Assembly (NCBI GenBank): GCA_021157605.1
Contig: JAGGWG010000020.1
Span: 1,110-65,109 of the forward strand
Origin: a bacterium
Lineage (GTDB): Bacteria; Patescibacteriota; UBA1384; JAGGWG01
DNA length: 64,000 nt
Direction: 5' to 3'
The notes under the pieces were generated by a model. The model was not told where the DNA came from, made no database searches, and saw only the letters and a program-made list of their open reading frames with translations. A program made the position numbers and the translations under genes. Shown one piece after another: positions 317 to 43,345 of this stretch (positions within the stretch are counted from its first letter, which is position 1; every line of letters begins with the position of its first letter).

Positions 317-2398
317 ATGACCAAACCAAAAAACGAGCAAAGCCTTGAACAAGATACTGAAACCCAAATCCCTGTTATGCCTGAAGAACAAACAGCCCCA
401 ACTCCTCCTCCAACTGAACCAAGCAGTGAAGGGATAGAAGGAGAAGCTGAAACAACAAAACAGGAAAAAGAAGGAGAAGAAATAACAAAAACAGAAACAG
501 CCACAGAGATAAATAAAACTGAAGAAGAAACACAAAAAGAATTGCCAACTCTTGAGGAAGAAAAGCTGTCTGCTAAAGTAGAGGTTAAACCCGGAGCTGA
601 ACTGCCGCCATTAAAAACAGGAAAATCATATTATTATAAAGACCAATCAGGCAACCCAAGAATAATCCATATTGCTGCCAGAGATGGTGATAAACTAACA
701 GTTAGGTTTGAAAAACTCACACCTACAGATAAAGGAAATTGGCAGCTTGCTCCTGACCCAGAAGACAATCAAGAATATCAGATAGACCATGAGGATCTTG
801 CCCCAAGATTAAGAGCAAGAATCAGCCAAGCCAAGCTAGATCCAGAAACACTAGAAAGAGAGTTTGAACAAAAAGAAAAGGAATACAATATAGACAGCAA
901 AAGAAAATCTCAGCCAAGAAGTAGTTTTTCCGTCTCTCCAATCCAAACTCTTTCTGCAGCTCAACAAAAAGGAGAACAAAGAAAGCAAGAGCCAAAACCC
1001 AGGAAACAAACAAAAGAAACAAAAAAGAAAGCAGAAAAAATTTACCAAAGAACTAGTACAGGCGAAAAAACTCAAGAGTCTACACGTGAAAAACAGAGCG
1101 AATTTCCAGCAACAGAAACAAGAGAAATTGAGTTAGCTGAATCTGACCCTCTCTTAAAATGGGCACAAGAAAAATTAGGTTCCAAAGATCTCAAAGTAGA
1201 ACTGATGCCAGCCAAAGAAAAAAAAGAAAGAATAGTATTAATCTCTGGAGGCATATATAAAGACAAACACAGCGACACTTACTATATTGTACAAACTGTC
1301 TACCCTTTTCCCTTTTCAACTTCAGAGTGTATATACGACAACGAGGAAAAGAAATGGAAAATAAGAAAATCACAAATACCAGCAGGTGATTTTCTAAAAT
1401 TAATAAGAAGCGGTGATATCGAAATAATTAAACCTGACAAAGGCGAATCACCAGCTCAAAAAGTTCCAAAAAAATTAAGAGAAAATCGATATTTTGCTAA
1501 TCATTATCTTTTAGCAATTGCCCAAAGAGCAGCCAGTAAAGAGTTTAAAGGAAGCAGAAACGAAGGCGAAAAGAGAGCAAAAGAACGCCGTCAAAAAATT
1601 GTCGCTTTGAAAAATATGCTAATAAATGGTATGCGGCAAGGATTTATATGGGAAAAGATGCAAACTGGAGAAAAGTTTATTTTAGAAAAATTAACTCCGA
1701 CAAGAGTAAAGTTAAGAAATGCTGAAACAGGAGAAGAGCTTTTTCTCTCTAATCCCACATTCTTCCTTATGAATTATGACCCAGTAGAAAGAAGGCAAGA
1801 AAAGAAAACTCAAGAAACCGCACCAGAAAAAAAACAAACTGAAGAAAAAATAGAGAAACAACCGCAAGAACAGCCAGAAGAAATAGAAAACCAACCCTCA
1901 GAAGAACAACCTCAAGAACAAACAGAAGAAACAGCACAAGAACAAGCCGAAACCAAACCTTCTGACAACACTCCTGAAACATTCCAGATTACAAAACAAC
2001 TACCAACAAAGCCTTATTTTAGAGAACCTCCCTTTGAATCTAATCCTGAAGAGCCATCTTCTAACCCATACACAAATATCTTTCTGGAAAACGCTCAAAA
2101 TTATATAGGAGAACAAATTCTTCCTGAACAAGCCAGAACTCTAAAAATAGGAGAGATTATCTTTAGGGGTGAGGTTAGAGATAATACTATAAGCGGCCGT
2201 TATGCTAAAATTTCAGGCATTACAGATGAAGGAATAAGATACCGACTAATAAATTCAGACAATAATTTTGGTCCTAAAGAGCCAAAAAAACTAAGCAGGA
2301 AAAAAGAAAGAGAAATTGCTTTTTCTGAAATTGCTTCTTCTGAAGAAGAGGCAGAAAACCAGAATAAATATCTCCTTTACAGGGTAAACTTGGGATAA
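317..2398 (+). CDS. Large hypothetical protein (693 aa) with Glu/Lys/Thr/Gln-rich low-complexity N- and C-terminal regions and an internal duplicated module (EKLTPT motif twice)
   Basis: Long ORF with ATG at 317. N-terminus is P/T/E-rich (PTPPPTEPSSEG); the central segments KSYYYKDQSGNPRIIHIAARDGDKLTVRFEKLTPTDKG and GEKFILEKLTPTRVKLRNAETGEELFL repeat the exact hexapeptide EKLTPT. No family recognised by eye. Confidence 0.7.
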   Translation: MTKPKNEQSLEQDTETQIPVMPEEQTAPTPPPTEPSSEGIEGEAETTKQEKEGEEITKTETATEINKTEEETQKELPTLEEEKLSAKVEVKPGAELPPLKTGKSYYYKDQSGNPRIIHIAARDGDKLTVRFEKLTPTDKGNWQLAPDPEDNQEYQIDHEDLAPRLRARISQAKLDPETLEREFEQKEKEYNIDSKRKSQPRSSFSVSPIQTLSAAQQKGEQRKQEPKPRKQTKETKKKAEKIYQRTSTGEKTQESTREKQSEFPATETREIELAESDPLLKWAQEKLGSKDLKVELMPAKEKKERIVLISGGIYKDKHSDTYYIVQTVYPFPFSTSECIYDNEEKKWKIRKSQIPAGDFLKLIRSGDIEIIKPDKGESPAQKVPKKLRENRYFANHYLLAIAQRAASKEFKGSRNEGEKRAKERRQKIVALKNMLINGMRQGFIWEKMQTGEKFILEKLTPTRVKLRNAETGEELFLSNPTFFLMNYDPVERRQEKKTQETAPEKKQTEEKIEKQPQEQPEEIENQPSEEQPQEQTEETAQEQAETKPSDNTPETFQITKQLPTKPYFREPPFESNPEEPSSNPYTNIFLENAQNYIGEQILPEQARTLKIGEIIFRGEVRDNTISGRYAKISGITDEGIRYRLINSDNNFGPKEPKKLSRKKEREIAFSEIASSEEEAENQNKYLLYRVNLG

Positions 2399-2421
2399 TC
2401 CTTTATTTTTTATAATTTTTC

Positions 2422-2450
2422 TTGATTTTTCTCTTTTTTTATGCTAATTT
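2422..2450 (+). promoter_or_regulatory. Candidate sigma-70-type promoter (TTGATT -35, 17-nt spacer, TAATTT -10) upstream of the sigma-region-4 gene
   Basis: Hexamer spacing read by eye in the T-rich 79-bp intergenic region; a perfect TATAAT also sits at 2411-2416. Weak evidence. Confidence 0.2.
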
Positions 2451-2477
2451 TTGCTCTAATGTCAATAATTTTTTTAT

Positions 2478-3461
2478 ATGTTAGTAAAGCCTAAAAAAGA
2501 GCTGGACAAACTTTTTCAGATTCTGCCGCAACGCCCCAAAGAGCAAAGAGAAAAAGATGTTCTCTTTGCCCGTTTTGGTATTAATGGCAAAGAACAAAGC
2601 CTACAAGCAATAGGCAACCGCTACCATATTACTCGCGAAAGAGTACGGCAAATTCAGAATCAGGGGATAAAAAACCTGCACAAAGCAGCTAAAAAAATAA
2701 AAATCTACAGACAAATAGCCAAAAAAGTAGAAAAACAAGCAGGAATTCTCTCTCTTGAAACCGCTTATAAAATCTTTTTGCCCAAAAACGCTACTAAAAA
2801 AAGCAAAACATTTCTTTTTCTTTTCTTGGTAGCCAACCCCCATCTGCGTTATTTTAAAGAAACCTCTAAAAACAATCCGTTTTTTACTTTTAAAATCAGC
2901 CCTAAAAAAATTAAAAAAATCTTTCAGAGAACGCTTTCTTTATTCAAAAAAGAAAAACAAGCCTTAAAAATAAGTTTAGCAGCTAAAAAATTAAAAATAG
3001 AGACAAAGCAACTAAAGGAAGTGGCCAACATTCTTAAAGAAGTAGATATTAGAGAGGGAAAGATTGGTTTAACAAGTTTCCCAGAAATCAATCCTAAAAC
3101 AACTGAAGCTAAAATTGACTTTATTTTTAAAAAGTACCAAAAACCTCTGCATTTTAGTAAAATAGCTTATCTAATCCGCAAAGAAAAGCTTTATTCCAAA
3201 AAACCAACTGAAGCTACAGTGCATAATGAGCTCATTAGACATAGGCATAAATATACATTAATAGGCAGGGGTATATATGCTTTAAAAGAGTGGGGATATA
3301 CTGAAGGAACAGTTAAAGACATAATTGCGCAAATCATTAAAAAATCCAATCGCAAACTCAGCCGGGAAGAAGTAATTGCTGAAGTCTTAAAACAACGCCA
3401 AGTAAAAAGAAACACTATCCTTTTAAATTTAGCTGGCTTTAGAAAAGAACTCAAAGCTTAA
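2478..3461 (+). CDS. Sigma-70 region 4 (4.1+4.2 HTH) domain protein with ~240-aa Lys-rich C-terminal extension; no region 2
   Basis: REKDVLFARFGINGKEQSLQAIGNRYHITRERVRQIQNQGIKNLHK matches the sigma-70 region 4 consensus (RE.EVL..RFGL...TLEEVG..F.VTRERIRQIE..AL.KLR). It sits at the extreme N-terminus, and the remaining 240 aa are K-rich with no sigma regions 2 or 3. Confidence 0.7.
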   Translation: MLVKPKKELDKLFQILPQRPKEQREKDVLFARFGINGKEQSLQAIGNRYHITRERVRQIQNQGIKNLHKAAKKIKIYRQIAKKVEKQAGILSLETAYKIFLPKNATKKSKTFLFLFLVANPHLRYFKETSKNNPFFTFKISPKKIKKIFQRTLSLFKKEKQALKISLAAKKLKIETKQLKEVANILKEVDIREGKIGLTSFPEINPKTTEAKIDFIFKKYQKPLHFSKIAYLIRKEKLYSKKPTEATVHNELIRHRHKYTLIGRGIYALKEWGYTEGTVKDIIAQIIKKSNRKLSREEVIAEVLKQRQVKRNTILLNLAGFRKELKA

Positions 3462-3493
3462 AAACCATCTTTTTGCTTTTCTCCTCTTTGCTT

Positions 3494-3521
3494 TTGCGTA
3501 TTTTCCTGATATCTTTATAAG
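3494..3521 (+). promoter_or_regulatory. Candidate promoter (TTGCGT -35, 16-nt spacer, TATAAG -10) ending 5 nt before the ATG of the ATPase gene, which could give a leaderless or very short-leader mRNA
   Basis: Hexamers read by eye in the 64-bp gap; no Shine-Dalgarno motif between the -10 and the ATG at 3526. Confidence 0.2.
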
Positions 3522-3525
3522 AAAT

Positions 3526-6234
3526 ATGGATACAGCTTCAAGCTTTATTTTATTGTTAACTCTAACAGGAGTTTTTTTAGGATTATACTACTATCGCCAA
3601 AAGCAGAAACTAGCCTACACCAAAGAACAGTTAGATAAAGTGGAGTGGAGTCTTCTTTCTTTAGCAGTTCCCAAAGAAAATGAAAAAGGACCAGAAGCAG
3701 CTGAAAATATGTTTGCCGCTTTACACGGCATCTTTCAGGAAAACCTACCTGAAAATCTCCAATCCCAAATCAGCTTTGAAATAGTCTCTAAACCTCAAGC
3801 TATAAACTTCTATGTTGCTTGCCCTAAGTATTTAGTTGATTTTATTGAAAGCCAAGTTTATGCCCAATATCCCAGTGTAGAAATCAGAAAAGTAGAGGAT
3901 TACATCCGTTTTGCTCCACAAACGCACTTTGCCGTAGGGGAACTCGCTACTACCAAAGAAGATATTCTACCGATCAAAACCTTTCCCAACTTTGAAGTAG
4001 ATCCTTTGTCTTCACTAACTAGTATTCTCTCTAAAATCTCAGGAGACGAACAGATTTGGGTGCAGATTGTGGTACGACCCATAGCTGATGAATGGCAAAA
4101 AAAGAGCCTAAACTGGACCCAAAGCGTAAAGAATACAGGCCGCACTCCGGGATTAGCTTTAAGCACCAGCAGTGTTTTAAAAACATTAATCAATTTTCTT
4201 AAAGAACTGATACAAACAGCCAAAGGAGGCGAAACAGGTGGCGGTGAAGGAGGGGAAGTGCAAATTCCCGGCCCTTTGCAGGCAGCCATAGAAGGAGCAG
4301 AACAAAAAAGCACCAAACTGGGATATAAAACAAAAATTAGGTTAGTAGTTTTTGCTAATGACCCGCAGACAGCTCAGGGGAAACTGCAAAGTGCAGTTGG
4401 CTCTTTTAAGCAATTCAATACTCTTAATGCTAATGGTTTTGCCTTGGGTAAGGTAGTTATAGATGACCCACAGGCTTTAAATCAATACCAAAAAAGATAT
4501 TTTCTTAATGACGGTTTTATCCTTAATGTAGAAGAACTAGCTTCTCTCTTTCATTTACCCAATGTCTCTGTAGAAACTCCGAAAATAGCCTGGTCTGGAG
4601 CTAAAAAAGGCGAACCGCCAAAAAATTTGCCTATTAAAAAGAAAAAAATCAACAAAGACTTAACTATTTTTGCTGCTACTGATTTTAGAGGCTCAAAAAA
4701 AGAGTTTGGCATTTTAAGAGAAGACCGCAGACACCATATGTACTTTATTGGTAAAACCGGGGTCGGCAAATCAACGGTTTTACACAATATGGCTATTTCT
4801 GACATTCAAAAAGGGGAAGGGTTAGCGGTTATTGATCCCCACGGTGAATTAGTAGAATCTCTGCTAGATTTTATCCCTAAAGAAAGAATAAAAGATGTTG
4901 TTTATTTTAATCCTGCTGATCAAGACTATCCTATTGCCTTTAATCTTTTAGAAAATGTAAAACCTGAATTAAAAACCATTGTTGCTTCTGGACTAGTAGG
5001 GATATTTAAGAAAATTTGGGCTGAATCTTGGGGACCGAGATTAGAGTATATACTCAGAAACGATATTTTAGCTCTTTTAGACTATCCTGATGCCACCCTT
5101 TTGGGAGTAACCAGAATTTTAGTAGATAAAGATTTTCGCCAAGAGGTAATAAAACACATCAAAGACCCGGTAATAAAAGAATTTTGGATATCTGAGTTTG
5201 AACAATACGACCAACGTTTCCGCACTGAAGCTATTGCTCCCATACAAAATAAAGTAGGTCAATTCTTGGCTTCACCCTTAATCCGCAATATTGTGGGGCA
5301 AAAAAGATCAACTTTGGATATAGGCGAAATCATGAACTCACGAAAAATACTTTTAATAAACCTATCCAAGGGCAAAATAGGGGAAGATGCCTCTGGCCTT
5401 TTGGGGGCAATGTTAATTACTAAGATTCAGATTGCCGCTTTAGAACGGGCTTCTATTAAACCGGAAAAAAGAAAAGATTTCTATCTCTACGTAGATGAAT
5501 TCCAAAACTTTGCTACTGAGGCTTTTGCCACTATCCTTTCTGAGGCAAGAAAGTACCGCCTAAACCTCATTATGGCTAACCAGTATATTGCTCAAATGGA
5601 AGAGCAGGTAAGAGATTCTGTTTTTGGCAATGTCGGAACCTTGATATCTTTTAGAGTAGGGCCATCAGATGCTCCTTACTTAGCCAAAGAGTTTATGCCC
5701 ACTTTTGAAGAAACAGATCTTATAAATTTGGATAAATTCCATATCTACCTAAAGATGTCTATTAAAGGCATTACTTCGCCGCCTTTCTCAGCTGAAACTT
5801 TGCCTCCTTTTGACGGCAAAGAGGGACTGGCAAAAGAAGTAATTGAACACAGCCGCAAAATCTATGCCCAACCTTTAGTCAAAGTAAAAAAAGAAATAGA
5901 AGATCAAGCACAAAGCAAAATCATTGAGGCTTTTGAGGATTTGGTAAAACCCAAAAAAATAAAAGTAGGGGATAAAACCTTTCTTGTACGCAAAGGCACA
6001 ACTGGCCATTACTGGTATTTTCCTTTAAACAATTCAAAAAGGGAAAAGCCAAATAAAAAGAAAGACAACCCCACAACTCAAAAAGAATCTTCGCCAGAAC
6101 CAAAAAAGAAAAAAAGAGTTCTTAAAAAACTGATTCAAGAAGCACTAAAAGAAAAAGAAGAACCTAAAAAAGAATCAAAAGACAATCTTAATAATAGCAC
6201 ACTAAAAAAAGAAAAAGGGGAGATAGAGCTTTAA
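3526..6234 (+). CDS. Membrane-anchored P-loop NTPase, type IV secretion coupling-protein-like (VirD4/TraG/TraD family, FtsK-HerA superfamily), 902 aa
   Basis: N-terminal single TM (SSFILLLTLTGVFLGLYYY followed by RQKQK, so N-out/C-in). Walker A YFIGKTGVGKST is followed by a VIDPHGEL motif (compare the DPKGE motif of T4CPs), and the Walker B region is LYVDEFQNF. About 370 aa of unassigned domain with a Gly-rich linker (GGETGGGEGGE) separate the TM from the P-loop, and the C-terminus is a K/E-rich tail. Family assignment is by motif only. Confidence 0.55.
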   Translation: MDTASSFILLLTLTGVFLGLYYYRQKQKLAYTKEQLDKVEWSLLSLAVPKENEKGPEAAENMFAALHGIFQENLPENLQSQISFEIVSKPQAINFYVACPKYLVDFIESQVYAQYPSVEIRKVEDYIRFAPQTHFAVGELATTKEDILPIKTFPNFEVDPLSSLTSILSKISGDEQIWVQIVVRPIADEWQKKSLNWTQSVKNTGRTPGLALSTSSVLKTLINFLKELIQTAKGGETGGGEGGEVQIPGPLQAAIEGAEQKSTKLGYKTKIRLVVFANDPQTAQGKLQSAVGSFKQFNTLNANGFALGKVVIDDPQALNQYQKRYFLNDGFILNVEELASLFHLPNVSVETPKIAWSGAKKGEPPKNLPIKKKKINKDLTIFAATDFRGSKKEFGILREDRRHHMYFIGKTGVGKSTVLHNMAISDIQKGEGLAVIDPHGELVESLLDFIPKERIKDVVYFNPADQDYPIAFNLLENVKPELKTIVASGLVGIFKKIWAESWGPRLEYILRNDILALLDYPDATLLGVTRILVDKDFRQEVIKHIKDPVIKEFWISEFEQYDQRFRTEAIAPIQNKVGQFLASPLIRNIVGQKRSTLDIGEIMNSRKILLINLSKGKIGEDASGLLGAMLITKIQIAALERASIKPEKRKDFYLYVDEFQNFATEAFATILSEARKYRLNLIMANQYIAQMEEQVRDSVFGNVGTLISFRVGPSDAPYLAKEFMPTFEETDLINLDKFHIYLKMSIKGITSPPFSAETLPPFDGKEGLAKEVIEHSRKIYAQPLVKVKKEIEDQAQSKIIEAFEDLVKPKKIKVGDKTFLVRKGTTGHYWYFPLNNSKREKPNKKKDNPTTQKESSPEPKKKKRVLKKLIQEALKEKEEPKKESKDNLNNSTLKKEKGEIEL

Positions 6235-6264
6235 TTTTACTCTGAACAAAATTCAGCAGCCTCT

Positions 6265-6290
6265 TAATATTGTGCGACGCAAATAAAACT
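6265..6290. repeat. TTGTGCGAC motif copy A (near-palindromic core TGCGACGCA) at the start of the long noncoding tract
   Basis: ttgtgcgac at 6270-6278. The reverse complement of its core tcgcacaat recurs at 6890-6898 and a direct variant ttatgcgac at 6904-6912, about 610 bp away. Confidence 0.4.
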
Positions 6291-6561
6291 AAACCAAAAT
6301 CGTGGATTTGTCTAAAATACTGCAATCCCTAAATTTTAAATTTCGGCTATTAATTAAACATTAGAAAACAAAAAACTAAAAGCAAAAGAGGGAAGACTAA
6401 CACAAAAACTAAAAATTAAAGCTCAAACAAAAAATTTTTAAAAAATAATTAATTTAAAACTTCAAAAAGCCAAAAACAAACAAAGAACAAGAAAATGAAT
6501 TAAAAATTAGGTCTATACTTGCCAAACAGCCAGTCAAGACCTAGTTAGGAATATATAAAAA

Positions 6562-6603
6562 AGCCAAAAACAGGCTTATAAGGGCAGTTTTGGCTGTTTT
6601 TTA
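6562..6603 (+). terminator. Candidate intrinsic terminator (imperfect hairpin gccaaaaac...gttttggc followed by TTTTTT) about 330 bp downstream of the ATPase gene
   Basis: Stem plus U-run read from the sequence. It is preceded by a second hairpin (taggtct...agaccta at ~6507-6540), which could mark the end of a long 3'UTR or an independent small RNA. Confidence 0.35.
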
Positions 6604-6880
6604 TATTTTACCTCAAATAAGGCAAAAATAAAGCATTTATTTTTGTTTTTTAGAGCCATAAAAAACAAAGGGCATAAAAAAGGTTATAAAAACGAAAAAG
6701 AAAACAAGAGTTTAAAAATAAAACAGCAAAAAATATTTTAAGCACTAAAATCACAATAAAACAAAAAAGAGAAAGGGCATTATTATAAAAAAGTGCTAAA
6801 AGAAAAATATTTTTAAAAATAAAAACAAAAAAACTTAAAAAAGCAAAAAGAGTAGAAGGAAAGGAGGGAGGTTTGTTATT

Positions 6881-6922
6881 GGTATATCTTCGCACAATGT
6901 ATCTTATGCGACATAATATACC
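6881..6922. repeat. 42-nt element bounded by a 7-bp inverted repeat (GGTATAT...ATATACC) that encloses two TGCGA half-sites in inverted orientation (tcgcacaat / ttatgcgac)
   Basis: Read directly from the sequence. It lies just downstream of the strongest purine-rich SD-like sequence in the window (aggaaaggagggagg, 6857-6871). Confidence 0.4.
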
Positions 6923-7084
6923 TTAGGGATAAGAACTGGCAAAGGCCTAATTTCAAAAAATAAAAAAGAAAATTAAAAAACAACAAAATTGTTTAAGAAT
7001 ATTTCCAGAATATTGAACCTTTTGCTTTGATCAAAAACAACCAAAAAACAATTTTTTCTACCCCCTCTCCCCTATTCAAAAACT

Positions 7085-7984
7085 TTAGACCACCTTTTTC
7101 TTCTTTCTTTGCAAAAGATCCACTAAAAGAGGGGTGGCTAAAAATATAGAGGAATATGTGCCAATACCTACTCCGATTGCCAAAGCCAAAGAAAAGTTTT
7201 TAATACTCTCCCCTCCTAAGAGGTATAAAGACAAAAGAACCAAAATAGTAGTAAAAGCAGTTCCCACTGAACGAGCCAATGTCTGCCAAATAGATAAGTC
7301 AGCCAAATCAGCTAATGCCCCCTCCTCTTTGATAAGATTTTCTCTGACACGGTCAAAAACAACAATGGTATCATTTACAGAATAGCCAATAGTAGTCAAA
7401 AGAGCGGTAATAAAGTAAGAATCAATAACTATTTTTGGACTAAAATGGCCCAAAAAAGAAAAACTGCCCAAAACAATCAGAGCATCATGAATTAAAGCAA
7501 TAACTGCCACTATACCAAAAAACCAACTGGAATACCCCTCAGGCACACTGCGAAAAGCATAAGCTACATATAAAATAATAGCTATAGAAGCCAGAACAAC
7601 CCCTAATAATGCCTTGCGCTGTAAATCCTTACTGACTGAAGGGCCAACACTCTCATAAGAAAGTTCCTTAAAATCAGCTACTTTTCTTAAAGCTTCTTTG
7701 AGCTTGCAATAATCATTCTCCTCTAAGTTTTGGGTGCGGATAAAATACTCTTTTTCTGAAGGTTGGATTTGAAAATAATCAAAACCAGCCTGTTTTAGTT
7801 GGGCGGCTACTCTGTCTTTAGTCACTTCTTTTTCAAACCTAATTTTTAATACACTACCTCCGGCAAAATCTATACCAAGATTAAAACGCCAGAAAACAAC
7901 TAAAAGAATGGAAACCAAAACAAGCAATAAAGAAAAAAGGTAAAACACTTTTCTGAATTTTATAAAACTAAAAGGTAATTTCAT
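7085..7984 (-). CDS. secF: Protein translocase subunit SecF
   Basis: GIDFAGGSVL motif and multi-TM SecD/F architecture; 4-bp overlap with the upstream secD. Confidence 0.85.
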   Translation of the reverse strand: MKLPFSFIKFRKVFYLFSLLLVLVSILLVVFWRFNLGIDFAGGSVLKIRFEKEVTKDRVAAQLKQAGFDYFQIQPSEKEYFIRTQNLEENDYCKLKEALRKVADFKELSYESVGPSVSKDLQRKALLGVVLASIAIILYVAYAFRSVPEGYSSWFFGIVAVIALIHDALIVLGSFSFLGHFSPKIVIDSYFITALLTTIGYSVNDTIVVFDRVRENLIKEEGALADLADLSIWQTLARSVGTAFTTILVLLSLYLLGGESIKNFSLALAIGVGIGTYSSIFLATPLLVDLLQRKKKKVV

Positions 7985-9297
7985 TTTTTAGTTATTATTT
8001 TCCCTGCCCTTTCAGGCACAAAAGCCTGTAAAAATGTGCGCGTAATAGTAATAGCTGAAAACATGCTCATCAAAATCCCAATGCCTAAAGTAACAGCAAA
8101 ACCTTTTATTTGGCCAGTTCCAAAAGAGTATAAAATTAAAGCAATCAAAAGACTGGAAACATTAGAATCTCTAATAGAAGGCCAGGCTCTCTTAAAACCT
8201 TCATTAATAGCCAAGGAGAGATCAGACCCCGATCTAAATTCCTCTTTGGTCCGTTCAAAAATCAAGATATTAGCGTCCACCGCCATACCTATAGAAAGAA
8301 TAAAGCCAGCTATACCAGATAAGGTTAAGGTAAAACCACCCAATTTAAAAAGGGAGAGAACTAAAACTCCATAAATAGAAAGGGCAGCAATAGCCCAAAA
8401 GCCAAAATAACGATAGTTTATCAACATATAAAGAGCCACCAAAAAAAGACCAATAATGCCGGCTACCAAGCTTTTTTGTATTGCTTCCTCACCCAAACTT
8501 GCCTCTACTGTTCTTTCCTCAACCAATTTAATAGGCACTGGCAAAGCACCAGCATTGAGCTGAATAGATAGCCGCTTAGCTTCTTGGGGGGTAAACTGGC
8601 CAGTAATCACCGCTTTGCCGCCAACAATTGCCTCTCTAACTATAGGCAGAGAAACAACTTTATTATCTAAAACAATGGCTACAGGCTTGCCAACATTGCG
8701 TTTAGTTATCTCCTCAAAATGTTTAGCCCCTCTGGAATTAAACTCTATAGAAACCTCCCACTCTTGTGTTTGCTGATTAACTGTAGGCTGAGCCCTTTTT
8801 AGATCTTTGCCAGAAAGTTCAGTCGGCTTAAAGCCAGGCAAAACCTCATTATTTTGATATTTTTTGTCTTCAGTTTGCTCCCAAAACTCAAGCTGGGCAG
8901 TCTGACCTATCAGCTCCTTAGCTTCCTCTAAATCTTTTATACCCGGCAACTCAACCAGAATCCCCCGCTTACCAGAAACAGCAACAGGATTAATCACTGG
9001 TTCACCTATACCAAACTTGTCTACGCGATTACGTATTACTTCCAAAGTAGAATCTGAAGCCGCATTCCGATCCTTAGCCTCTATATTGGAAAGGTCCAGC
9101 TGGTAAAGAAGGTGGGCACCTCCCTTGAGATCCAATCCCAAACGCAAAGGAAAATCATGATGCAAAATCTTATTTCCCCAAGGTAAAATAATCAACAAAC
9201 CTAAAACTAATAAAGCAAAAATTAAAAACAAACGCCAAAAATGTTTTTTTAACCAAATCACAAACTCTATGATAGAAAAGCTTTCTTTACTTTGCAA
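7981..9297 (-). CDS. secD: Protein translocase subunit SecD
   Basis: LGLDLKGGAHLLYQLDL motif typical of the SecD periplasmic domain, followed by an RND-like TM bundle; located upstream of secF. Confidence 0.85.
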   Translation of the reverse strand: MQSKESFSIIEFVIWLKKHFWRLFLIFALLVLGLLIILPWGNKILHHDFPLRLGLDLKGGAHLLYQLDLSNIEAKDRNAASDSTLEVIRNRVDKFGIGEPVINPVAVSGKRGILVELPGIKDLEEAKELIGQTAQLEFWEQTEDKKYQNNEVLPGFKPTELSGKDLKRAQPTVNQQTQEWEVSIEFNSRGAKHFEEITKRNVGKPVAIVLDNKVVSLPIVREAIVGGKAVITGQFTPQEAKRLSIQLNAGALPVPIKLVEERTVEASLGEEAIQKSLVAGIIGLFLVALYMLINYRYFGFWAIAALSIYGVLVLSLFKLGGFTLTLSGIAGFILSIGMAVDANILIFERTKEEFRSGSDLSLAINEGFKRAWPSIRDSNVSSLLIALILYSFGTGQIKGFAVTLGIGILMSMFSAITITRTFLQAFVPERAGKIITKK

Positions 9298-9977: not shown

Positions 9978-10945
9978 AGCTCCTTAATTAATTTTTTAGC
10001 TTCTGATGTATCTTTCACCTTGCCAAAACGAATCCGCCATTTTTTGCTGCCAAAAAAATTTTTTAAATACCAAAATATATGGGGCCGAAAATAAAACCAG
10101 GCATTTTCCCCGTATAACTCTTGGGCTAAACCAAAATGCTCTTTAATTACCTTTTTGCGCTCTGCTAGTAGCGGCTCTGCTTTTTGCCAGCCCCGACTAT
10201 TCAAAAACCTCTGTGGGTTCTCTTTAATTAAATCTAAGTTTTCAAATATCCAGGGGTTTCCCAAAGCGCCGCGGGCAACTAAAGCGCCATTAGGTTTTGC
10301 TTTTAAAAACAAACGAGCCAAATCCTTTTGGGAAAAAATATCACCAGTGGCTATTAAAGGAATACTTAATTTTTGTTTTACCAAATTAAACAGATTCCAG
10401 TCAGCTCTGCCGCCAAACTTTTGTTTTACTGTGCGCGGATGCAAAATCAAAGCATCAACCCCTATTTTGTTTAACTCTCCAGCCCATTTTAAAATCTCCT
10501 TCTTACTGCTAAAACCTGATCTTGTTTTTAAAGAAAGGGGAAGGGTAGTTTTGCGTCGCACAATATCAAGAAGAGAGAGGAGTTCCTTCACCTCTCTAAG
10601 CAAAAAACCACCCATTTTCTGCTTTAAAACATTTTTAACCGGACAGGCAAAATTAAGATCTATAGCATCTACTTTTATCTCTTTTTCTAAAATTTCAGCT
10701 GCTTCAGCTAAAACCTTCCCTTTTCTACCTATAAGCTGAGCCACAAGCGGCCGCTCCCTTTTTTTAAATTTAAGTTTTAAAAAAATAGGCTTCAGCCGCC
10801 GCACCAACCCCTCAGCCGGTATCATCTCAGTAAAAACAAAATCCGCCCCAAAAGAACGGGCAATCTGGCGAAAACAAGAATCAGTATAAGACTCCATTGG
10901 GCCTAAACCAACTTTTCTCAGAGACCAATCAAACTTAGAGTTCAT
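9959..10945 (-). CDS. tRNA-dihydrouridine synthase (Dus family, TIM barrel)
   Basis: DLNFACPVKNV, LILHPRT and ATGDIFS segments resemble the Dus FMN-binding barrel. The start may be a downstream Met. Confidence 0.7.
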   Translation of the reverse strand: MNSKFDWSLRKVGLGPMESYTDSCFRQIARSFGADFVFTEMIPAEGLVRRLKPIFLKLKFKKRERPLVAQLIGRKGKVLAEAAEILEKEIKVDAIDLNFACPVKNVLKQKMGGFLLREVKELLSLLDIVRRKTTLPLSLKTRSGFSSKKEILKWAGELNKIGVDALILHPRTVKQKFGGRADWNLFNLVKQKLSIPLIATGDIFSQKDLARLFLKAKPNGALVARGALGNPWIFENLDLIKENPQRFLNSRGWQKAEPLLAERKKVIKEHFGLAQELYGENAWFYFRPHIFWYLKNFFGSKKWRIRFGKVKDTSEAKKLIKELCKPES

Positions 10946-16264: not shown

Positions 16265-18517
16265 TTAATCTTTTTGTTTTATTTTCTCCCAAGCTTGAGA
16301 AACCATTTCACTAAAAAGATAAGCCCCTACTTGGTTTATGATTCCATGCTGGCGTTTGCCAAATATCTCTCCCTCTCCCCTTTTCTCCAAATCCCTCAAA
16401 GAGATTTTATAAAACGCTTGCGGCTCTTTTATCAGCGAGAGAAAATCTACTAACCTTTCATAAGAACTATCGGGCAATTTTTTAGGCACAGCCACCCAAA
16501 AATAAGAAACTTGGCCAGCACGACCAATACGCCCTCGCAACTGATAAAGATCTCCTATACCCAACCTGGAGCCATACCAGAGAATCATTGTCTGCGCTCC
16601 GGAAATATCTAAACCATGCTCTACAATAGCAGTAGCCACCAACACATCTACTTTTCGCAAAGAAAAACGGCTTAAAGCCTGAGCCAGCTTATCCTTAGGC
16701 ATCCGGCCGTGAGCCACAGCCACCTCAAACCCCATGAATTTAAGTTTTGAAGATATGTTTAAAACATCTTTAATTAAAGGAGCCACAAAATAAACGCCTT
16801 TTTTCTTCTTGGCTGCCCTCTTAATTACTTTTTCAATCCGGGACCAATCACTTTGGGAAAGAACCCTGTCTTTGATTTTTCTTTCAACCCACCCTTCTAA
16901 AACAGACATTGTTTTGATTTTAGAAAGAGAAAGATAAAGGGTGCGAGGTATGGGGGTAGCGGTTAAGGAAAGAACACTTAGGGAAGGATTTTTAAGACGC
17001 CACTTTTCTTTTTGTTTCACACCAAAACGCTGTTCCTCATCAATAACTGCCAAACCTAAATTTTCAGCTTCTAAAGAAGCGAACAAAAGCTTGTGGGTGC
17101 CAATAAGCAAATCAATCTTTCCTTCATTAAACTTCTTTATTATTTCCTGATTCTTCTTTTCTTTTTGCAGACTGCAAACCAAGGCGACCCTAACGGGCAG
17201 GTTTTGCAAACGCTCTTTAAAAACCAAATACTGCTGTTGAGCCAAAATAGTAGTGGGAGCTAAAAAAACAACCTGCTTATCAGGTAAAAATAAAGAAGCT
17301 ACCCGCAACGCCACCTCAGTTTTGCCTGAACCTGCTGGACCGATCAAAAGATGGTCAAAAGGCCTCTTCTGAAATAACAAGTTTTGAATTTCCTGCAAAG
17401 CCTTTTTTTGGGCAGGGGTCAAACTAAAAGGACAGGTTTTTTCCAGATGCTTTAAAAAAAATTGTCCAAATCTTTTGATCTCTATTTTCTGCCTTTTTAA
17501 ACTTTTATAAAGGGCAAAAAGCTTTTTAGCCAGTTTTTCTGCTTCTGCCTCTGCCAATATTTTTGTTTTTTCCCACCCACTTTTGCCAAGAGAGGAAAGA
17601 TGAGGCTTAAGACCAATATATTTAGTCAGCCGTCTTTTTTCTTTTAAGGGAACATACAAATAAGCATTATTTTGAAAACGCAAGTGATAGTAAAATTCTC
17701 TTCTCTCCGCTTGAGGCAGGACTTGCTCATCTAAACTCAAAGGCAGTTGTTTAGGACCAATACCCTCTAGTTTAGCAATTCCGTGATCAATATGGACTAC
17801 ATAATCGCCAACAGAAAAATCAGTTATGCTCTTAAAACGACGAATTTTAATCTTTTTTTGAAAATCTTTGTCAGTAAAAAAATGCCAGCGGCCCAAACTA
17901 AAACCAGAAAAATCCAAAGGAGGTAAAAAATATATTTTTGCCTTTTTAGCCAAAGCCTTCAAAGCTAATTCATAACGGGAAAAGAGAACCACTCGTTGTT
18001 GAGAAGAATGCGCCAAACGGATTACTTCTTTGAAAGTTGAATAGGAATGGGGCTTACATAAAATTAAAGATTCTGAATGTTTAAGTTCAGAAAACTTTAT
18101 GGGATAAACAAAAAGGGAATCAACTATCTCAAGAGATTTTTGGCTGCGTTGGTCAAAAAAATAGATCCTCTCAAGAGTCTGGTCAAAAAACTCTAAACGC
18201 ACGGGATACAAAGAAACATTATCCCAAAAATCAACCACCTCTCCTCTAAAAGAAAATTGCCCTTTTTCATAAACTAGGGGGGATTCAACAAAACCCAAAG
18301 CAGAAAATTTCTGGCGCAAAACTCTCTGGGAATAATCTTTGCCTTGCCTCAGCCAAATACCCTCCCCTCTCTCTTTGGCCGATATGTGTCGCACAATATA
18401 TAGAAAAAGCTCTGGAGCTTGAGGAACCTCTCCTTTTTTTAAAAAAGAGAGAGTGCGCTGAACTTCGGGTTCAGCAGCGAACCCTGTTATTATTTTTTCT
18501 AACGGCCGCATTTCCAT
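16265..18517 (-). CDS. mfd: Transcription-repair coupling factor Mfd, short form lacking the N-terminal UvrB-homology/UvrA-binding module
   Basis: CarD/RID-like segment FSVGDYVVHIDHGIAKLEGI; SF2 helicase motifs GPAGSGKTEVA, DEEQRFGV and LSLTATPIPRTL; TRCF C-terminal domain. Only 750 aa, and rplK begins 48 bp upstream, so there is no room for a longer N-terminus. Confidence 0.8.
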   Translation of the reverse strand: MEMRPLEKIITGFAAEPEVQRTLSFLKKGEVPQAPELFLYIVRHISAKERGEGIWLRQGKDYSQRVLRQKFSALGFVESPLVYEKGQFSFRGEVVDFWDNVSLYPVRLEFFDQTLERIYFFDQRSQKSLEIVDSLFVYPIKFSELKHSESLILCKPHSYSTFKEVIRLAHSSQQRVVLFSRYELALKALAKKAKIYFLPPLDFSGFSLGRWHFFTDKDFQKKIKIRRFKSITDFSVGDYVVHIDHGIAKLEGIGPKQLPLSLDEQVLPQAERREFYYHLRFQNNAYLYVPLKEKRRLTKYIGLKPHLSSLGKSGWEKTKILAEAEAEKLAKKLFALYKSLKRQKIEIKRFGQFFLKHLEKTCPFSLTPAQKKALQEIQNLLFQKRPFDHLLIGPAGSGKTEVALRVASLFLPDKQVVFLAPTTILAQQQYLVFKERLQNLPVRVALVCSLQKEKKNQEIIKKFNEGKIDLLIGTHKLLFASLEAENLGLAVIDEEQRFGVKQKEKWRLKNPSLSVLSLTATPIPRTLYLSLSKIKTMSVLEGWVERKIKDRVLSQSDWSRIEKVIKRAAKKKKGVYFVAPLIKDVLNISSKLKFMGFEVAVAHGRMPKDKLAQALSRFSLRKVDVLVATAIVEHGLDISGAQTMILWYGSRLGIGDLYQLRGRIGRAGQVSYFWVAVPKKLPDSSYERLVDFLSLIKEPQAFYKISLRDLEKRGEGEIFGKRQHGIINQVGAYLFSEMVSQAWEKIKQKD

Positions 18518-34260: not shown

Positions 34261-36480
34261 TTATTCGGAAGGTGGGTAATAAAGATATATTTTTTCTAAC
34301 AAAGGAGAAAGTCCAGGGATATCACGCCAATAAGCCTCTTTATCTCTTCCCTGAATTTCAACATTGCCTTCAATCTTTTTAGCAATAAAAGCCCCTAAAA
34401 GATTAACTGGCGACTGAACCTTTATTGTTCCTCCGATATCCCCATAGGGCAAAACAATAAATACACCGCGCGCGCAGCTTATATCAGAAGATAAATTTAA
34501 ATTTCCTCCCCAAACTAAAACGCCAAAAGTTTTTTCACAAACAGCACTCGCTAAATCAGAACTCAAAATATATTCTCTACCCGGCGAACTTCTGGAATCA
34601 AGAATATAAAGCCTGCCTGAACGCAAAGTCAAACCATCCAAACTATCAACTACCTTTATACCTGTCGGCTGCTCACTGAGAAAATATTCCAAAATTCCAC
34701 TTACCTCTTTTTGAAATCGTTGTGAAGCAGAATAACTCTCTTCCTCAAAATCATAATCACGCAAAAGAGCCAAACTGCCTTGGGGATAATGAAAACTGCT
34801 ATTAGCAGAAAGCACAACCAAATCAGCTCTCAAGGGAATATCCTGACTTTCTAAATATATATCACCTTGACCTGAAATTCCGGGAGAAACAAGAAGGTTG
34901 TATTGGGGCAAACTGTTTTCCTCCAAACGACCTTCCTGAGAAGCAAACCACTGTATTTTAGAACCAGCACAATCCACACATCCGGAACCTAAAGCACTAT
35001 CTTTAATAGAAAAATATATCTTTAAATTTAAGTTTTCAAATATGGTATCTTCTGGAAAAACAATCTCTAACTGCCCATTATTCTCATTTACACTATCAGG
35101 CACAACCTGAACTCCACCGGCAAAAGCCTCAACACTATTAAAAGTAAGCAAAGATGGGGAAAAACTTTCCACTACTTTTATGCCTCCCGTACCACTCAAA
35201 GCTTCTAATATCTGGCGGAAAATACTCTCAATGTTTTCACTTCCTTGAGGAATATAGTAGTACATTCCTCCAGTTTCAAAAGATAAGCCATTTAAAAGAT
35301 TAAATTTGACACCTGGCAAAGGCAAATCTGTCTTGACCAAAGAATATTGGATTCCTGACCTTTCCCTAACTTCAAAAACCGCACTTCTGTCTCCGCCTCT
35401 ACCATCAATGCTGCCTGGACACACAGAAGACGGACAGTTATAAATAGGATGAATAGATGTTAAAGACGAGGATTCTCTCGGAGGGCTCCCATCCGCATCT
35501 TCGCCATAACCTACATTGTATAATTTAATATTATCGCTCTTAAGCGCCTCAATTAATTCTAAGGAATTAGCTGGCGGATGATTGGTGTCACAATCATAAT
35601 GCGGATTCCGACTAGGATTCTCAAGATATCTCTTAAAATCCCAATTTTCTGTGCAGGCATACTGAGGATTGTTTTGATTTAAATAACAAGCGCTTTCATT
35701 CCCCGGACTAGGATTAGCAATATAAAATATATTTTCTTTACCCTGTCTGCCATCTGTAAAATTTAAAATTACTTTTTTGGCTGAATTATTTTTTACCTTG
35801 TTATTAAACAACCTTAATCCTTCTGAAAGTCCCCACCCCATTGCTGTCTGGTGGCATTTGCGATCAGCAATACGGTCTTCGGTAATTTTCTCAACTTGCT
35901 GACGTAAACTACTAACTTGAGAAGTAAAATTAATTTCTTCTACCCAATTAGGGTTATTATAGGTCTCTTTCCATTCACCGTTATAATAACCAATCATTGT
36001 GTCATAACGCAGTAAAGCCACCCTTATCTTTGTTGAAGAAGTTCTTCTTAAATTAATTTGCTCTAAACTATCCAAAAAAGTTAATAAACCTTCCTGTGCC
36101 GCTTCCATTTTACTCCGACAACTCTCGTTTAATTCCCTTCCATCTTCACATTTATTGGTCATAGACCAACTACTATCTACCAAAAGAAGTAAATAAGTCT
36201 CCTGGGCTTCTTTTTTTAATGGTTCTATTTCTAAATCAATCTGAATATTAGCTCTATTTCTTACTTCATTAGTTGTGGAGGAAGAAAGGAGACGGTTTTG
36301 CCCTCGATAAACCTCGTAAACACTCTTAGCAAAAACAGGGAGCTCACCCTCTTCTATTCCTTCTTCTGAAAAAAGAAAAAGATGCGCTGCTGGCGGTGGA
36401 ACCATTCCTAAAACTGTATTAGAGGACAACATCAAAAATAAAGCTACTGCTAAAACAAACAATTTTTTAAAACTATGCAT
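34261..36480 (-). CDS. Secreted von Willebrand factor A (MIDAS) domain protein, 739 aa, at the head of the pilus operon (candidate pilus-associated adhesin)
   Basis: Signal peptide MHSFKKLFVLAVALFLMLSSNTVLG; LLLVDSSWSM contains the DxSxS MIDAS motif. The large C-terminal region is rich in short repeated beta-like segments and carries many Cys. Confidence 0.65.
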   Translation of the reverse strand: MHSFKKLFVLAVALFLMLSSNTVLGMVPPPAAHLFLFSEEGIEEGELPVFAKSVYEVYRGQNRLLSSSTTNEVRNRANIQIDLEIEPLKKEAQETYLLLLVDSSWSMTNKCEDGRELNESCRSKMEAAQEGLLTFLDSLEQINLRRTSSTKIRVALLRYDTMIGYYNGEWKETYNNPNWVEEINFTSQVSSLRQQVEKITEDRIADRKCHQTAMGWGLSEGLRLFNNKVKNNSAKKVILNFTDGRQGKENIFYIANPSPGNESACYLNQNNPQYACTENWDFKRYLENPSRNPHYDCDTNHPPANSLELIEALKSDNIKLYNVGYGEDADGSPPRESSSLTSIHPIYNCPSSVCPGSIDGRGGDRSAVFEVRERSGIQYSLVKTDLPLPGVKFNLLNGLSFETGGMYYYIPQGSENIESIFRQILEALSGTGGIKVVESFSPSLLTFNSVEAFAGGVQVVPDSVNENNGQLEIVFPEDTIFENLNLKIYFSIKDSALGSGCVDCAGSKIQWFASQEGRLEENSLPQYNLLVSPGISGQGDIYLESQDIPLRADLVVLSANSSFHYPQGSLALLRDYDFEEESYSASQRFQKEVSGILEYFLSEQPTGIKVVDSLDGLTLRSGRLYILDSRSSPGREYILSSDLASAVCEKTFGVLVWGGNLNLSSDISCARGVFIVLPYGDIGGTIKVQSPVNLLGAFIAKKIEGNVEIQGRDKEAYWRDIPGLSPLLEKIYLYYPPSE

Positions 36481-41320: not shown

Positions 41321-43345
41321 ATGCAAAGCCAAATTGCCAAAATCATTACTTCTCCAAAAATAGAATCCCGTTATTTTTTAACAGGTAGCTACACCCCCAG
41401 AGAAGAAAATCTAATTCAAAAAGGAACAATATTTTGGCTTATAGAGATAACTGCTCCGGGACAGGAAAAAATAGCTTCTCTAATTATCAAACGTTTTAAA
41501 CAATACTACACCCAAAAAGAAGACGGGCTTTGGGGTTTTGAAGCAGTATTAAAAAAGATAAACCGCCGTTTAGGTAAAGAACTACAACATAAAAACAGCA
41601 GTTGGGTTAATCATTTAAATGCAGTTCTGGGGTTAATTCAGGACAACTCTTTACATCTTGCCCCTACTGGCGAAGCAACTGCTTATCTTTTTAGAGAAAA
41701 CAAGATCTCCAATATTCTGGAAGTAGAAGAATCACCCCCGCCTTTACAAACCTTTATCAGCGTTATTTCAGGCGACCTACAACCTAATGACAAGGTCTTT
41801 CTGGGCAGCAGCGAGTTTTCTTCATATATGACTATTGAAACTTTAGCGGATTTTTTAAACTCCCCTACTGAAAAAGCGCTCCAAGAGATCGCCAACTACT
41901 TCAGAGAGAGAAATTTAAGAAAAATAAACGCTCTTATTGTTGACTGCTCTGAACAGCCGCTACATGTAGACACAATTTATTTAGACCAAGCCCCTGAAAA
42001 CAACTGGCAGAAAACGCTTAAATTTATTAAACAGAGCAAAGAAAAACTCTTTGTTTTAATCAACCAAGCAGCTTTAAACATTGGCTCCCAAGAATTAAAA
42101 TGGCTAAAAAAATACTGGCAAAATAAAAAAAATATCGAAACTGAAAAAAAATCTGCTTTTGTTGGCTCAGCTTTAAAAATAGAGGCAGTTAAAAAAATTA
42201 GCGGCTTAAGCAGTTTTTTTGCACAAAAGAAATTTAGGGAATTTTTGCAAAAACACAGAAGAAATATCACTTTGGTTGCTATTATTTTAACTCTTATAGC
42301 CTTTGCTTCTCTTACTGTTTGGCAAAAAAGCGGCTCCCACAAAAAAGACTTAATAGCTAAATTCGAACAAGCGCAAAAATTAGTAGAAGAAGCTAAAATA
42401 AAAAAGACAACCCGACAAACAGAAGAAGCTTATAACCTCTTAAATCAAGCCGAATCATTAGCTAAAGAAGTAAAATCTTACGCTCCCCTTTCTTCGCAGG
42501 CAGAAGACTTAAGTAAAATTATTAATGAAGAACTTAATACTCTCACCAATACCATCCGCCTTTCGCCCTTAACCCCTATACTCAGCGACCTCAATTCTCA
42601 AGGCGAAGTGGAAACAGAAAAACTACTTAATCTAAACGGCAAAATTATTACTTACAATCTTAAACACAACCAATTTTTCAGCATTGACCCTGCCACTAAA
42701 AAAACAGAAACTTACTTTTATCTACCGCAAGCAGTTGGCAACCCAGAGAAAGCAACCTTATTTTCCAGCGATACCACCTATTTCTTTATCCAAACTAATC
42801 AACAAAGCTTTTTTCTCTATTCCACTAAAGACAAAAATTTAGTTGAAGCCCCTCAGGCAGGAAGTTTTGATTGGCCAGCTCAAATTAAAGATCTGCTTAA
42901 TTTCCGCAACCGCGTCTATTTCTTTACGCCCTCTGGACTCTGGCGCTCAAGCTATACTGCCTCTGGCTTTACCTCTCCGCACAAAGCTTTGGAAACAGAC
43001 CTAAATAATGCTCTCTCAGCAACTATTGACGGAGCTATTTACTTGCTTTTTCCTCAGGGAGAAATAAAAAAATTTTTAGCCGGAAAAGAAACAGACTTTA
43101 GTCTAAAAATACCTTTTTATTTAGATCTCTCCCAAGCAGATAAAATCTTTACCCAACCTGATTTAGGCTCTTTATTTATTTTAATTAAAAACCAAAGAAA
43201 AATCGTTGTTTTTGATAAAGCCGGTGAATTCAAACAACAGATTGTTTTTCCTGAGGAATGGGGCGAAATTCAAGACTTTATTGCCGATGTTTCTGGCAAC
43301 CTCTTTGTTTTAGCGCAAAACAAGATATACCAAACAAAGTACTAA
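41321..43345 (+). CDS. Hypothetical bitopic membrane protein (674 aa): cytoplasmic N-domain, central TM, extracytoplasmic C-domain with beta-propeller-like repeats
   Basis: TM at ~residues 310-335 (ITLVAIILTLIAFASLTVW); the C-terminal half carries recurring YFF, IYLLF and LFVLAQN beta-strand-like blocks; no family recognised. Confidence 0.6.
   Translation: MQSQIAKIITSPKIESRYFLTGSYTPREENLIQKGTIFWLIEITAPGQEKIASLIIKRFKQYYTQKEDGLWGFEAVLKKINRRLGKELQHKNSSWVNHLNAVLGLIQDNSLHLAPTGEATAYLFRENKISNILEVEESPPPLQTFISVISGDLQPNDKVFLGSSEFSSYMTIETLADFLNSPTEKALQEIANYFRERNLRKINALIVDCSEQPLHVDTIYLDQAPENNWQKTLKFIKQSKEKLFVLINQAALNIGSQELKWLKKYWQNKKNIETEKKSAFVGSALKIEAVKKISGLSSFFAQKKFREFLQKHRRNITLVAIILTLIAFASLTVWQKSGSHKKDLIAKFEQAQKLVEEAKIKKTTRQTEEAYNLLNQAESLAKEVKSYAPLSSQAEDLSKIINEELNTLTNTIRLSPLTPILSDLNSQGEVETEKLLNLNGKIITYNLKHNQFFSIDPATKKTETYFYLPQAVGNPEKATLFSSDTTYFFIQTNQQSFFLYSTKDKNLVEAPQAGSFDWPAQIKDLLNFRNRVYFFTPSGLWRSSYTASGFTSPHKALETDLNNALSATIDGAIYLLFPQGEIKKFLAGKETDFSLKIPFYLDLSQADKIFTQPDLGSLFILIKNQRKIVVFDKAGEFKQQIVFPEEWGEIQDFIADVSGNLFVLAQNKIYQTKY

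Follow-up and report, generated by a model that had tools for sequence, protein, structure and literature searches.

The 64,000-nucleotide stretch analyzed here (positions 1,110 to 65,109 of contig JAGGWG010000020.1, assembly GCA_021157605.1; hereafter the window) belongs to a bacterium of the Patescibacteria, a group that also goes by the name Candidate Phyla Radiation (CPR), and contains a 28-bp element at positions 6887–6914 that is very probably a dif site at the replication terminus. At such a 28-bp sequence, sister chromosomes that have become joined are expected to be parted by Xer recombinases. The element lies in the largest intergenic gap of the window (850 bp, 6235–7084), which interrupts a very compact gene layout between the convergent genes of a type IV coupling protein (T4CP)-like ATPase and of SecF, and which would accordingly represent the replication-terminus intergenic region of this chromosome. 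The assignment builds on the architecture of the site, its similarity to published dif sequences, its uniqueness in the window, its conserved position among relatives, and, across the motif family, terminus-like surroundings and linkage to Xer genes.

The site has the layout of a Xer recombination site. Its inner part is an 8-6-8 palindrome centred at 6900.5, in which TCGCACAA (6890–6897) and TTATGCGA (6904–6911) are separated by a spacer of exactly 6 nt; three further bases on each side complete the 11-6-11 arrangement, with the left arm TCTTCGCACAA (6887–6897), the central region TGTATC (6898–6903), and the right arm TTATGCGACAT (6904–6914). Both strands of the window (approximately 128,000 positions) were scanned with a log-odds matrix derived from 23 published dif sites alone. 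The first rank was taken by 6887–6914 on the plus strand (22.7 bits) and the second by the opposite strand of the same site (19.8 bits), compared to 11.6 bits for the best unrelated position and 10.1 bits for the weakest training site. An overlapping register at 6906–6933 of the minus strand (CTTATCCCTAA GGTATA TTATGTCGCAT) reaches 13 bits with this matrix because TTATGCGACATAA is nearly palindromic. The site is identical at 20 of 28 positions to the dif of Escherichia coli (GGTGCGCATAATGTATATTATGTTAAAT), published together with those of Bacillus subtilis and Frankia alni (PMC3025954), and at 21 of 28 positions to the predicted dif of Pseudomonas aeruginosa (GATTCGCATAATGTATATTATGTTAAAT; PMC3025954 supplement). 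Besides these sequences, the 23 sites of the matrix comprise approximately 17 proteobacterial dif predictions, including that of Magnetospirillum (CGTCGCCATAATATACATTATGCGACAA), and the start of the right arm, TTATGCGA, also occurs in the predicted sites of Magnetospirillum, Bartonella, and Xanthomonas (PMC2731167); the supplementary files that accompany the 2011 catalogue of dif sites (641 organisms from 16 phyla) do not contain it. For the core TCGCAYAA-N6-TTRTGCGA, approximately 1e-4 exact matches would be expected in the window and one was found, which remains the single copy within these 64 kb even if three mismatches are allowed.

A metagenome scan with TCGCAYAATRYAYNTTRTGCGA retrieved at least 120 contigs carrying the motif, with the consensus RYG-TCGCAYAA-TRYAYN-TTRTGCGA-CRY. 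Motif-bearing or related contigs and loci of this comparison set are designated by L numbers, and all family counts given below are among the matches listed. Twelve motif-bearing contigs with approximately 38–56% protein identity to the window and a similar gene order were regarded as its relatives. The order secD-secF, site, ATPase gene is found in L106, L093, L042, and L056; L088, L048, L148, and L051 contain the secDF side only, followed by the contig end; and in L037, L075, L067, and L108 the ATPase gene adjoins the site, with the other neighbours differing. The relatives also possess a long non-coding gap at this place, with no intact gene in it, and exactly one sub-element of the gap is conserved: in blastn searches of the gap against the 12 relatives, and against approximately 150 loci in all, the dif core was the sole match. 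The hairpins, the Shine–Dalgarno (SD)-like tract, the boundaries of the open reading frames (ORFs), and the A-richness of the gap have no counterpart in the 12 relatives. Since the motif was found within 6 kb in none of 28 secF loci of named Patescibacteria from the GTDB, the linkage of secF and dif is confined to this clade.

Throughout the family the motif is found in terminus-like surroundings. Among 33 non-redundant loci with at least 1.5 kb of sequence on both sides, it is intergenic in 32, and the flanking gene blocks are convergent in 22 and divergent in four. In 27 of the 33 loci the left side has the higher GC skew, and the skew changes sign from plus to minus in 14 loci versus four with the opposite change. 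Moreover, motif-bearing gaps are long (median 380 bp versus 33 bp for the other gaps of the same loci; 36.5% versus 1.7% reach 500 bp or more), and 41 of 63 lie between convergent genes. A distance far above 150 bp between convergent genes, as seen in the window, is thus a general trait of these terminus gaps.

The initial annotation had pointed out a 42-nt palindromic element at 6881–6922. This element is real, with folding z-scores of −3.0 on the plus and −6.3 on the minus strand, and contains the dif-type site; its outer pair GGTATAT/ATATACC is displaced by one base from the inner palindrome, an offset that follows from the nearly palindromic TTATGCGACATAA. A selected long hairpin or cruciform was rejected as a feature of the family. 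In 111 non-redundant sites, the flanks are complementary above expectation at offsets 1–3 outside the 8-nt core (0.78 versus 0.50, 0.50 versus 0.29, and 0.59 versus 0.37 expected) and at background level beyond, from which it follows that the arms are 11 bp long and that the outer pair in the window is incidental. The palindrome and the inverted TGCGA motifs, both pointed out in the initial annotation, are the two informative features of the gap. The suggestion of a cis-acting site in the gap was right in kind, except that the site is of the Xer/dif type and not clt- or oriT-like.

The motif is also linked to the expected type of enzyme. In at least 12 loci, clustering of neighbouring ORFs revealed a tyrosine recombinase of 300–340 amino acids no further than two ORFs from the motif on one side or the other, and in about ten loci its gene is less than 500 bp away. 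These proteins contain the Pfam Phage_integrase and SAM-like domains, and their best NCBIfam matches are XerC, XerD, XerA, and PRK00283, the latter above cut-off for L131. Two loci harbor a tandem pair of Xer-type genes directly at the motif (L062, 7776–9764; L105, 2692–4680), with integrase-like fragments nearby, which may represent a two-recombinase variant or a mobile module. Other families recurring beside the motif are an FtsQ-type POTRA protein (12 loci), a Peptidase_C39-like protein (15 loci), an amidohydrolase (10 loci), and, between dif and secF, a DUF1290 protein (five loci); these neighbours span different lineages, including L037, L044, L061, L082, L087, L120, L133, L134, L142, and L144.

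By analogy to characterized systems, we infer that the genome encodes a Xer recombinase and that recombination occurs at 6887–6914. One or two Xer-type tyrosine recombinases, encoded outside the window, would each bind one 11-bp arm and exchange strands across the central region TGTATC, so that a chromosome dimer formed by an odd number of crossovers between sister chromosomes would be resolved to monomers at division. The arms are nearly identical, with TCGCAYAA on both, and this agrees with a single recombinase or with two that closely resemble each other.

The context of the site in the window is consistent with a terminus. All genes from 317 to 6234 are on the plus strand and all genes from 7085 to 39837 (33 kb) on the minus strand, and plus-strand GC skew is close to −0.03 in the first 6 kb and close to −0.2 across 7–64 kb, the latter value holding also beneath the plus-strand genes at 40–49 kb. 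The switch of gene strand and the step in GC skew coincide at the site, and the skew to its right is as expected right of a terminus. Several points weigh against the assignment as a dif site, however. Firstly, to the left of the site the window provides just 6 kb with a skew near zero, so that a step and not a clean sign change is seen; extension of this flank through other contigs gained 885 bp. Secondly, a Xer gene is absent from the 64-kb window (tblastn; Pfam analysis of 38 proteins), as are genes for FtsK and for structural maintenance of chromosomes (SMC) proteins, and both the single-copy status of the site and the search for its cognate recombinase pertain to these 64 kb only; recombination at the site is predicted by sequence comparison. 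Thirdly, the motif also occurs on 40 viral contigs and at a few loci between divergent genes, and not every copy of it is a chromosomal dif. Finally, the strong A-richness of one strand of the gap is not explained by a dif site.

The 40 viral contigs, from IMG/VR (L156–L195), carry the dif-type core often near the contig end, and no Xer-like gene was found in them with seven Xer queries (E ≤ 1e-8). They have the appearance of integrative mobile elements exploiting Xer (IMEX) and may be such IMEX-like elements or else phages infecting CPR hosts. Identity was found between L193 and L153 and between L194 and L100; two of the four loci with mainly divergent neighbours (L153 and, from a related check, L100) have the same sequence as viral contigs. 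The orientation of TGTATC relative to the ATPase and secF genes is opposite in the window and in L106, L093, L042, L056, L088, and L048, and in L037 topA-dprA is located on the ATPase side of dif instead of the secF side, which suggests inversions around the terminus.

Table 1. Sites, structural elements, and genes in and around the gap (window coordinates)
Feature	Position	Strand	Evidence or remark
dif-type site, 28 bp, 11-6-11	6887–6914	+	Top match of the dif matrix, unique in window, conserved
Extended palindrome, dif arms plus outer GGTATAT/ATATACC pair	6881–6922		Folding, inspection of inverted repeats
Half-site TTTGCGTCGCACAATATTAAGA, one arm and central region, no second arm	6262–6283	−	Contains the distal TGCGA
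Second half-site copy, 22 nt, inside dus, antisense	10550–10571	+	One Y position differs; Dus Pfam coverage
Third half-site GTGTCGCACAATAT, 14 nt, 5′ part of mfd ORF, antisense	18386–18399	+	Motif search
Stable hairpin, 10-bp outer stem AUUAGGUCUA/UAGACCUAGU	6505–6546	+	−16.4 kcal/mol, z −6.0 versus shuffled
Symmetric hairpin, A-run on one side, T-run on the other	6548–6609		Folding, inverted repeats I1 and I3
15-codon TTG ORF, SD-like tract 6857–6871 upstream	6879–6926	+	By-product of dif, not a gene
81-aa Phe/Leu-rich ORF	6650–6895	−	Artefact of the T-rich strand
Non-coding gap between convergent ATPase and secF genes	6235–7084		ORFs, Pfam, no coding potential
Sigma70_r4/HARE-HTH protein gene	2478–3461	+	Pfam; accompanies the ATPase gene in L106, L093, L037
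T4CP-like P-loop ATPase gene, 902 aa, 3′ end towards dif	3526–6234	+	Pfam
secF	7085–7984	−	SecD_SecF_C, E 1.6e-57; conserved right-hand neighbour of the site
secD	7981–9297	−	With secF, conserved right-hand neighbour of the site

The window also contains isolated half-sites of the motif (Table 1). The one nearest to dif is composed of a good arm, GCG-TCGCACAA, and a central-region-like TATTAA, and accounts for the inverted TGCGA/TCGCA pair (6273–6277, 6890–6894) noticed in the initial annotation, which is real and not due to chance. The 22-nt half-site motif occurs twice in the window versus 0 expected, and GTCGCACAATAT three times versus 0.07 expected; all three half-sites lie less than 12 kb from dif and none in the remaining 45 kb. 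Similarly, other loci contain ten isolated copies of GTCGCAYAATAT (0.34 expected) and 13 exact copies of the 11-nt arm of their own dif (0.69 expected), and in these loci 8-mers of the arms are 2.6-fold enriched less than 500 bp from the full site. Such isolated half-sites were observed in L051, L059, L070, L075, L076, L087, and L124, and further in L133, L134, L154, L160, L161, and L174. A polarity of the extra arms towards dif, as in KOPS- or Ter-like sequences, was not detected (approximately 11 consistent versus 10 inconsistent in a hand tally). As two of the half-sites in the window are located inside the intact genes dus and mfd, they are unlikely to be scars of insertions. At the terminus of B. 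subtilis, dif-like sequences termed XDS are described as positions where XerD unloads Smc-ScpAB (Karaboja et al. 2021, as cited in PMC11840125 and PMC10945525). Like XDS, the half-sites in the window are dif-like without being full recombination sites and are scattered in the terminus region; this likeness is a resemblance only and, unlike XDS, they cannot be assigned to a XerC-like or XerD-like arm, because both dif arms are alike. The half-sites hint that an XDS-like organization of the terminus may be widespread.

A rather unlikely, though still credible, addition to the dif assignment is that the segment from approximately 6284 to 6886 is a decayed remnant of DNA brought in or rearranged by Xer recombination, such as an element of the IMEX type, a segment inverted between dif and a pseudo-dif, or a degenerate copy of the tail of the ATPase gene. 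Such an origin is compatible with a dif site and would explain the extra length of the gap. It would agree with a half-site located 605 bp from dif and 36 bp past the ATPase stop codon, with the enrichment of arm 8-mers close to dif in other loci, with the occurrence of the motif on viral contigs that yielded no Xer-like gene, and with a central region that is inverted relative to the flanking genes when compared to L106-type relatives. Contig L034 moreover ends at 6270, exactly at the junction of arm and centre of this half-site. There is also a weak gapped similarity (approximately 70%) between the coding sequence of the ATPase tail (6024–6180) and the gap (6353–6505), with a local alignment score of 46 versus 30 ± 4 for mononucleotide shuffles, which are a generous null model for such low-complexity DNA; this may reflect a degenerate duplication or just shared low complexity. 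On the other hand, the segment lacks an ORF and resembles none of the viral or other loci compared, the half-site is inverted and not direct relative to a good arm, at odds with a simple product of integration, and the two further copies within intact genes indicate that half-sites need not be scars. The gap as the decayed 3′ end of the ATPase gene itself was rejected, as the C-terminal EG..I.L motif is conserved in the relatives right to the stop codon and tblastn of the relatives' ATPase tails against the gap gave no match.

The ATPase gene adjoins the site, with its 3′ end towards it, in at least eight other loci (L106, L093, L042, L056, L037, L075, L067, and L108), down to 38% protein identity, whereas the genes across the site change. 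These loci are phylogenetically clustered. The protein matches the Pfam families TrwB_AAD_bind (E 4.9e-9), TraG-D_C, and T4SS-DNA_transf and resembles TrwB, TraD, and CedD rather than FtsK; all homologs share a small C-terminal domain and the terminal EG..I.L motif. Patescibacteria genomes are reported to contain approximately two VirD4-type T4CP homologs each, which mostly lie apart from virB4 and may have been co-opted for other roles (PMC12102498), and the linkage to dif provides one candidate role for these "orphan" homologs. More speculatively, the site could be the centre of a small terminus-organizing module specific to this clade of Patescibacteria, consisting of the ATPase, the half-sites, and the A-tract spacer, a proposal that we regard as improbable. 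In such a module the T4CP-like ATPase would serve as DNA translocase at dif, instead of or alongside FtsK, with activation of Xer or removal of DNA from the septum as its task, and SMC complexes would be stalled or unloaded by Xer and nucleoid proteins bound to the half-sites and to the A-tract-rich spacer. It would parallel, by analogy, the XDS of B. subtilis and the dif-flanking boundary of Thermococcus.

Outside the dif-type site the gap appears as a lineage-specific spacer. The ORF, Pfam, and coding analyses agree with the initial annotation on an 850-bp non-coding region between convergent ATPase and secF genes, and the purine skew described there was likewise found (A 413, or 48.6% of the plus strand, T 213, C 119, G 105; 61% purine). 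Each frame contains 15–19 stop codons, and no coding potential was detected in any frame with genetic code 11 or with TGA as a sense codon, an alternative code that yields no ORF. Scans for tRNA and tmRNA genes found nothing in the gap, and its tandem repeats are low-complexity A-rich units only. A-tract coverage (0.435) is the highest of any 850-bp stretch of the window (0.231 ± 0.045); the A-richness of one strand is unique to the gap within the window, carries on from the lysine-rich tail of the ATPase, and exceeds that of all 61 other dif-containing gaps among the matches listed. A-tract richness as a general trait of dif-containing gaps was rejected (p 0.73 versus other gaps), and phased A-tracts or intrinsic curvature were not significant (power in the 9.8–11.5 bp band, p 0.07).

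The proposal that the gap encodes a small RNA, read from the plus strand and ending at a terminator at 6562–6603, or a micropeptide of 15 codons, is very unlikely. Both hairpins are significantly stable, the first being present at 6505–6546 where the initial annotation had placed it at approximately 6507–6540. The second (−19.2 kcal/mol, z −3.6 on the plus strand; −14.9 kcal/mol, z −3.3 on the minus strand) is followed by a U-run on each strand and has in silico the form of an intrinsic terminator. As it is flanked by both an A-run and a T-run, it is terminator-like in both directions; the terminator noted earlier thus exists, but its reading as one for the plus strand alone fails. Located between the ATPase gene and dif, approximately 370 nt past the ATPase stop codon, it has the look of an ordinary terminator, and judging from sequence the hairpin pair 6505–6609 most likely ends the ATPase transcript on the plus strand and read-through from secF on the minus strand. 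Against a small RNA also speak the lack of any family match in the gap in Rfam 15 at gathering score (three tRNAs only in the whole window; at permissive E-values weak chance matches of 18–21 bits on the terminator hairpin, versus cut-offs of 50–90), four promoter-like sites versus 4.8 expected, and the absence of a conserved hairpin from the 12 relatives. AAGGAGG does occur at 6861, 11 nt upstream of the TTG that opens the 15-codon ORF, so that both elements noted earlier exist; the heptamer is found 24 times in the window, and the rank of strongest SD-like sequence claimed for this tract was not established. Neither the tract nor the ORF boundaries are conserved in the relatives. The ORF overlaps dif completely and matches other loci in residues 5–12 only, read off the conserved site on either strand; we therefore rejected it as a gene and regard it as a translation of dif DNA. 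The 81-aa ORF, already considered a poly-Phe/Leu artefact, produced scattered low-complexity matches only, with none at the corresponding position in the relatives, and was rejected as well; both short ORFs, like the SD-like tract, are incidental. The suggested remnant of a decayed gene found no backing either, as the gap has no translated similarity to proteins of the relatives and the C-terminal end of the ATPase is intact. Also very unlikely is a palindrome functioning as oriT- or clt-like transfer site in DNA export or import by the adjacent ATPase: this gene does adjoin the site here and in at least eight loci, including distant ones (38% identity) with differing neighbours, but an ATPase of this kind is missing from the neighbourhood of most of more than 110 non-redundant motif loci, the motif is built like dif, scores as dif, and is found at skew steps and beside Xer genes, and no relaxase-like domain was detected among the 38 window proteins scanned, although the neighbouring 693-aa protein matches no family.

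The closest relatives of SecF have 33–47% identity and derive mostly from metagenome-assembled genomes of Patescibacteria/CPR. Five metagenome contigs (99.0–99.96% identity) contain this same secF, and as L002, one of them, covers the gap in full, the arrangement does not stem from an assembly error. Each of the six near-identical metagenome contigs extending into the region stops within the gap or at its edge (L002 at 6203, L034 at 6270, L001 at 6397, L004 at 6425, L005 at 6993, and L003 at 7083), possibly caused by low coverage of the terminus, low-complexity sequence, or real structural heterogeneity. Large ORFs without a Pfam match are located at 317–2398 (plus strand, 693 aa), 34261–36480 (minus strand, 739 aa), and 41321–43345 (plus strand, 674 aa); the first, upstream of the HTH-ATPase gene pair, also lacks an NCBIfam match.

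Although dif is a well-known kind of element, it appears to be undescribed for CPR bacteria, and full-text searches found no paper combining Xer/dif terms with Patescibacteria or CPR. For an uncultivated member of this group, the site indicates where the chromosome probably terminates replication and resolves dimers, and searches with its consensus brought up well over 100 metagenome contigs with a probable dif site. As a landmark, dif can be useful for closing and orienting CPR genomes, for coverage-based growth estimates, and for spotting mobile elements that exploit Xer.

The site shares its length of 28 bp and the 11-6-11 layout with bacterial XerCD/dif systems as in E. coli, B. subtilis, Pseudomonas, and Magnetospirillum. 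Its left arm (...TCGCAYAA) is like the XerC arm of Pseudomonas (GATTCGCATAA), its right arm also starts with TTATG, its central region TGTATC is comparable to TGTATA, and like the sites of these systems it is intergenic, between convergent genes, at a step in GC skew. It differs in that the right arm is TTATGCGACAT instead of TTATGTTAAAT, which gives two arms of one type and a nearly symmetric site. In its near-symmetric arms it resembles the sites of single-recombinase systems, namely XerS/difSL, XerH/difH, and the archaeal XerA/dif. The xerS gene adjoins difSL (PMC5357621), as recombinase genes stand directly beside the site in some motif-bearing loci; however, difSL has 31 bp, whereas the site described here has 28 bp and no xer gene nearby in the window. 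In the archaeon Thermococcus kodakarensis, dif lies in a 1.9-kb gap between convergent genes that is rich in AT and A-tracts, and it is this gap rather than dif that forms an SMC boundary via the nucleoid protein TrmBL2 (PMC11840125). The dif of the window likewise lies in an unusually long, AT- and A-tract-rich convergent gap, but here the A-richness is peculiar to this one species within the motif family. Finally, several features recall IMEX such as CTXphi, TLCphi, and the gonococcal genetic island: a degenerate dif-like site accompanies dif in the window, the motif is carried by viral contigs without a detected Xer-like integrase, and, as in the gonococcal island, a gene of the type IV secretion system kind is located next to dif. 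In contrast to IMEX, the linkage of ATPase gene and dif is stable across species with approximately 50% protein identity and core genes lie on the other side of the site, so that the left flank looks chromosomal and not recently integrated.

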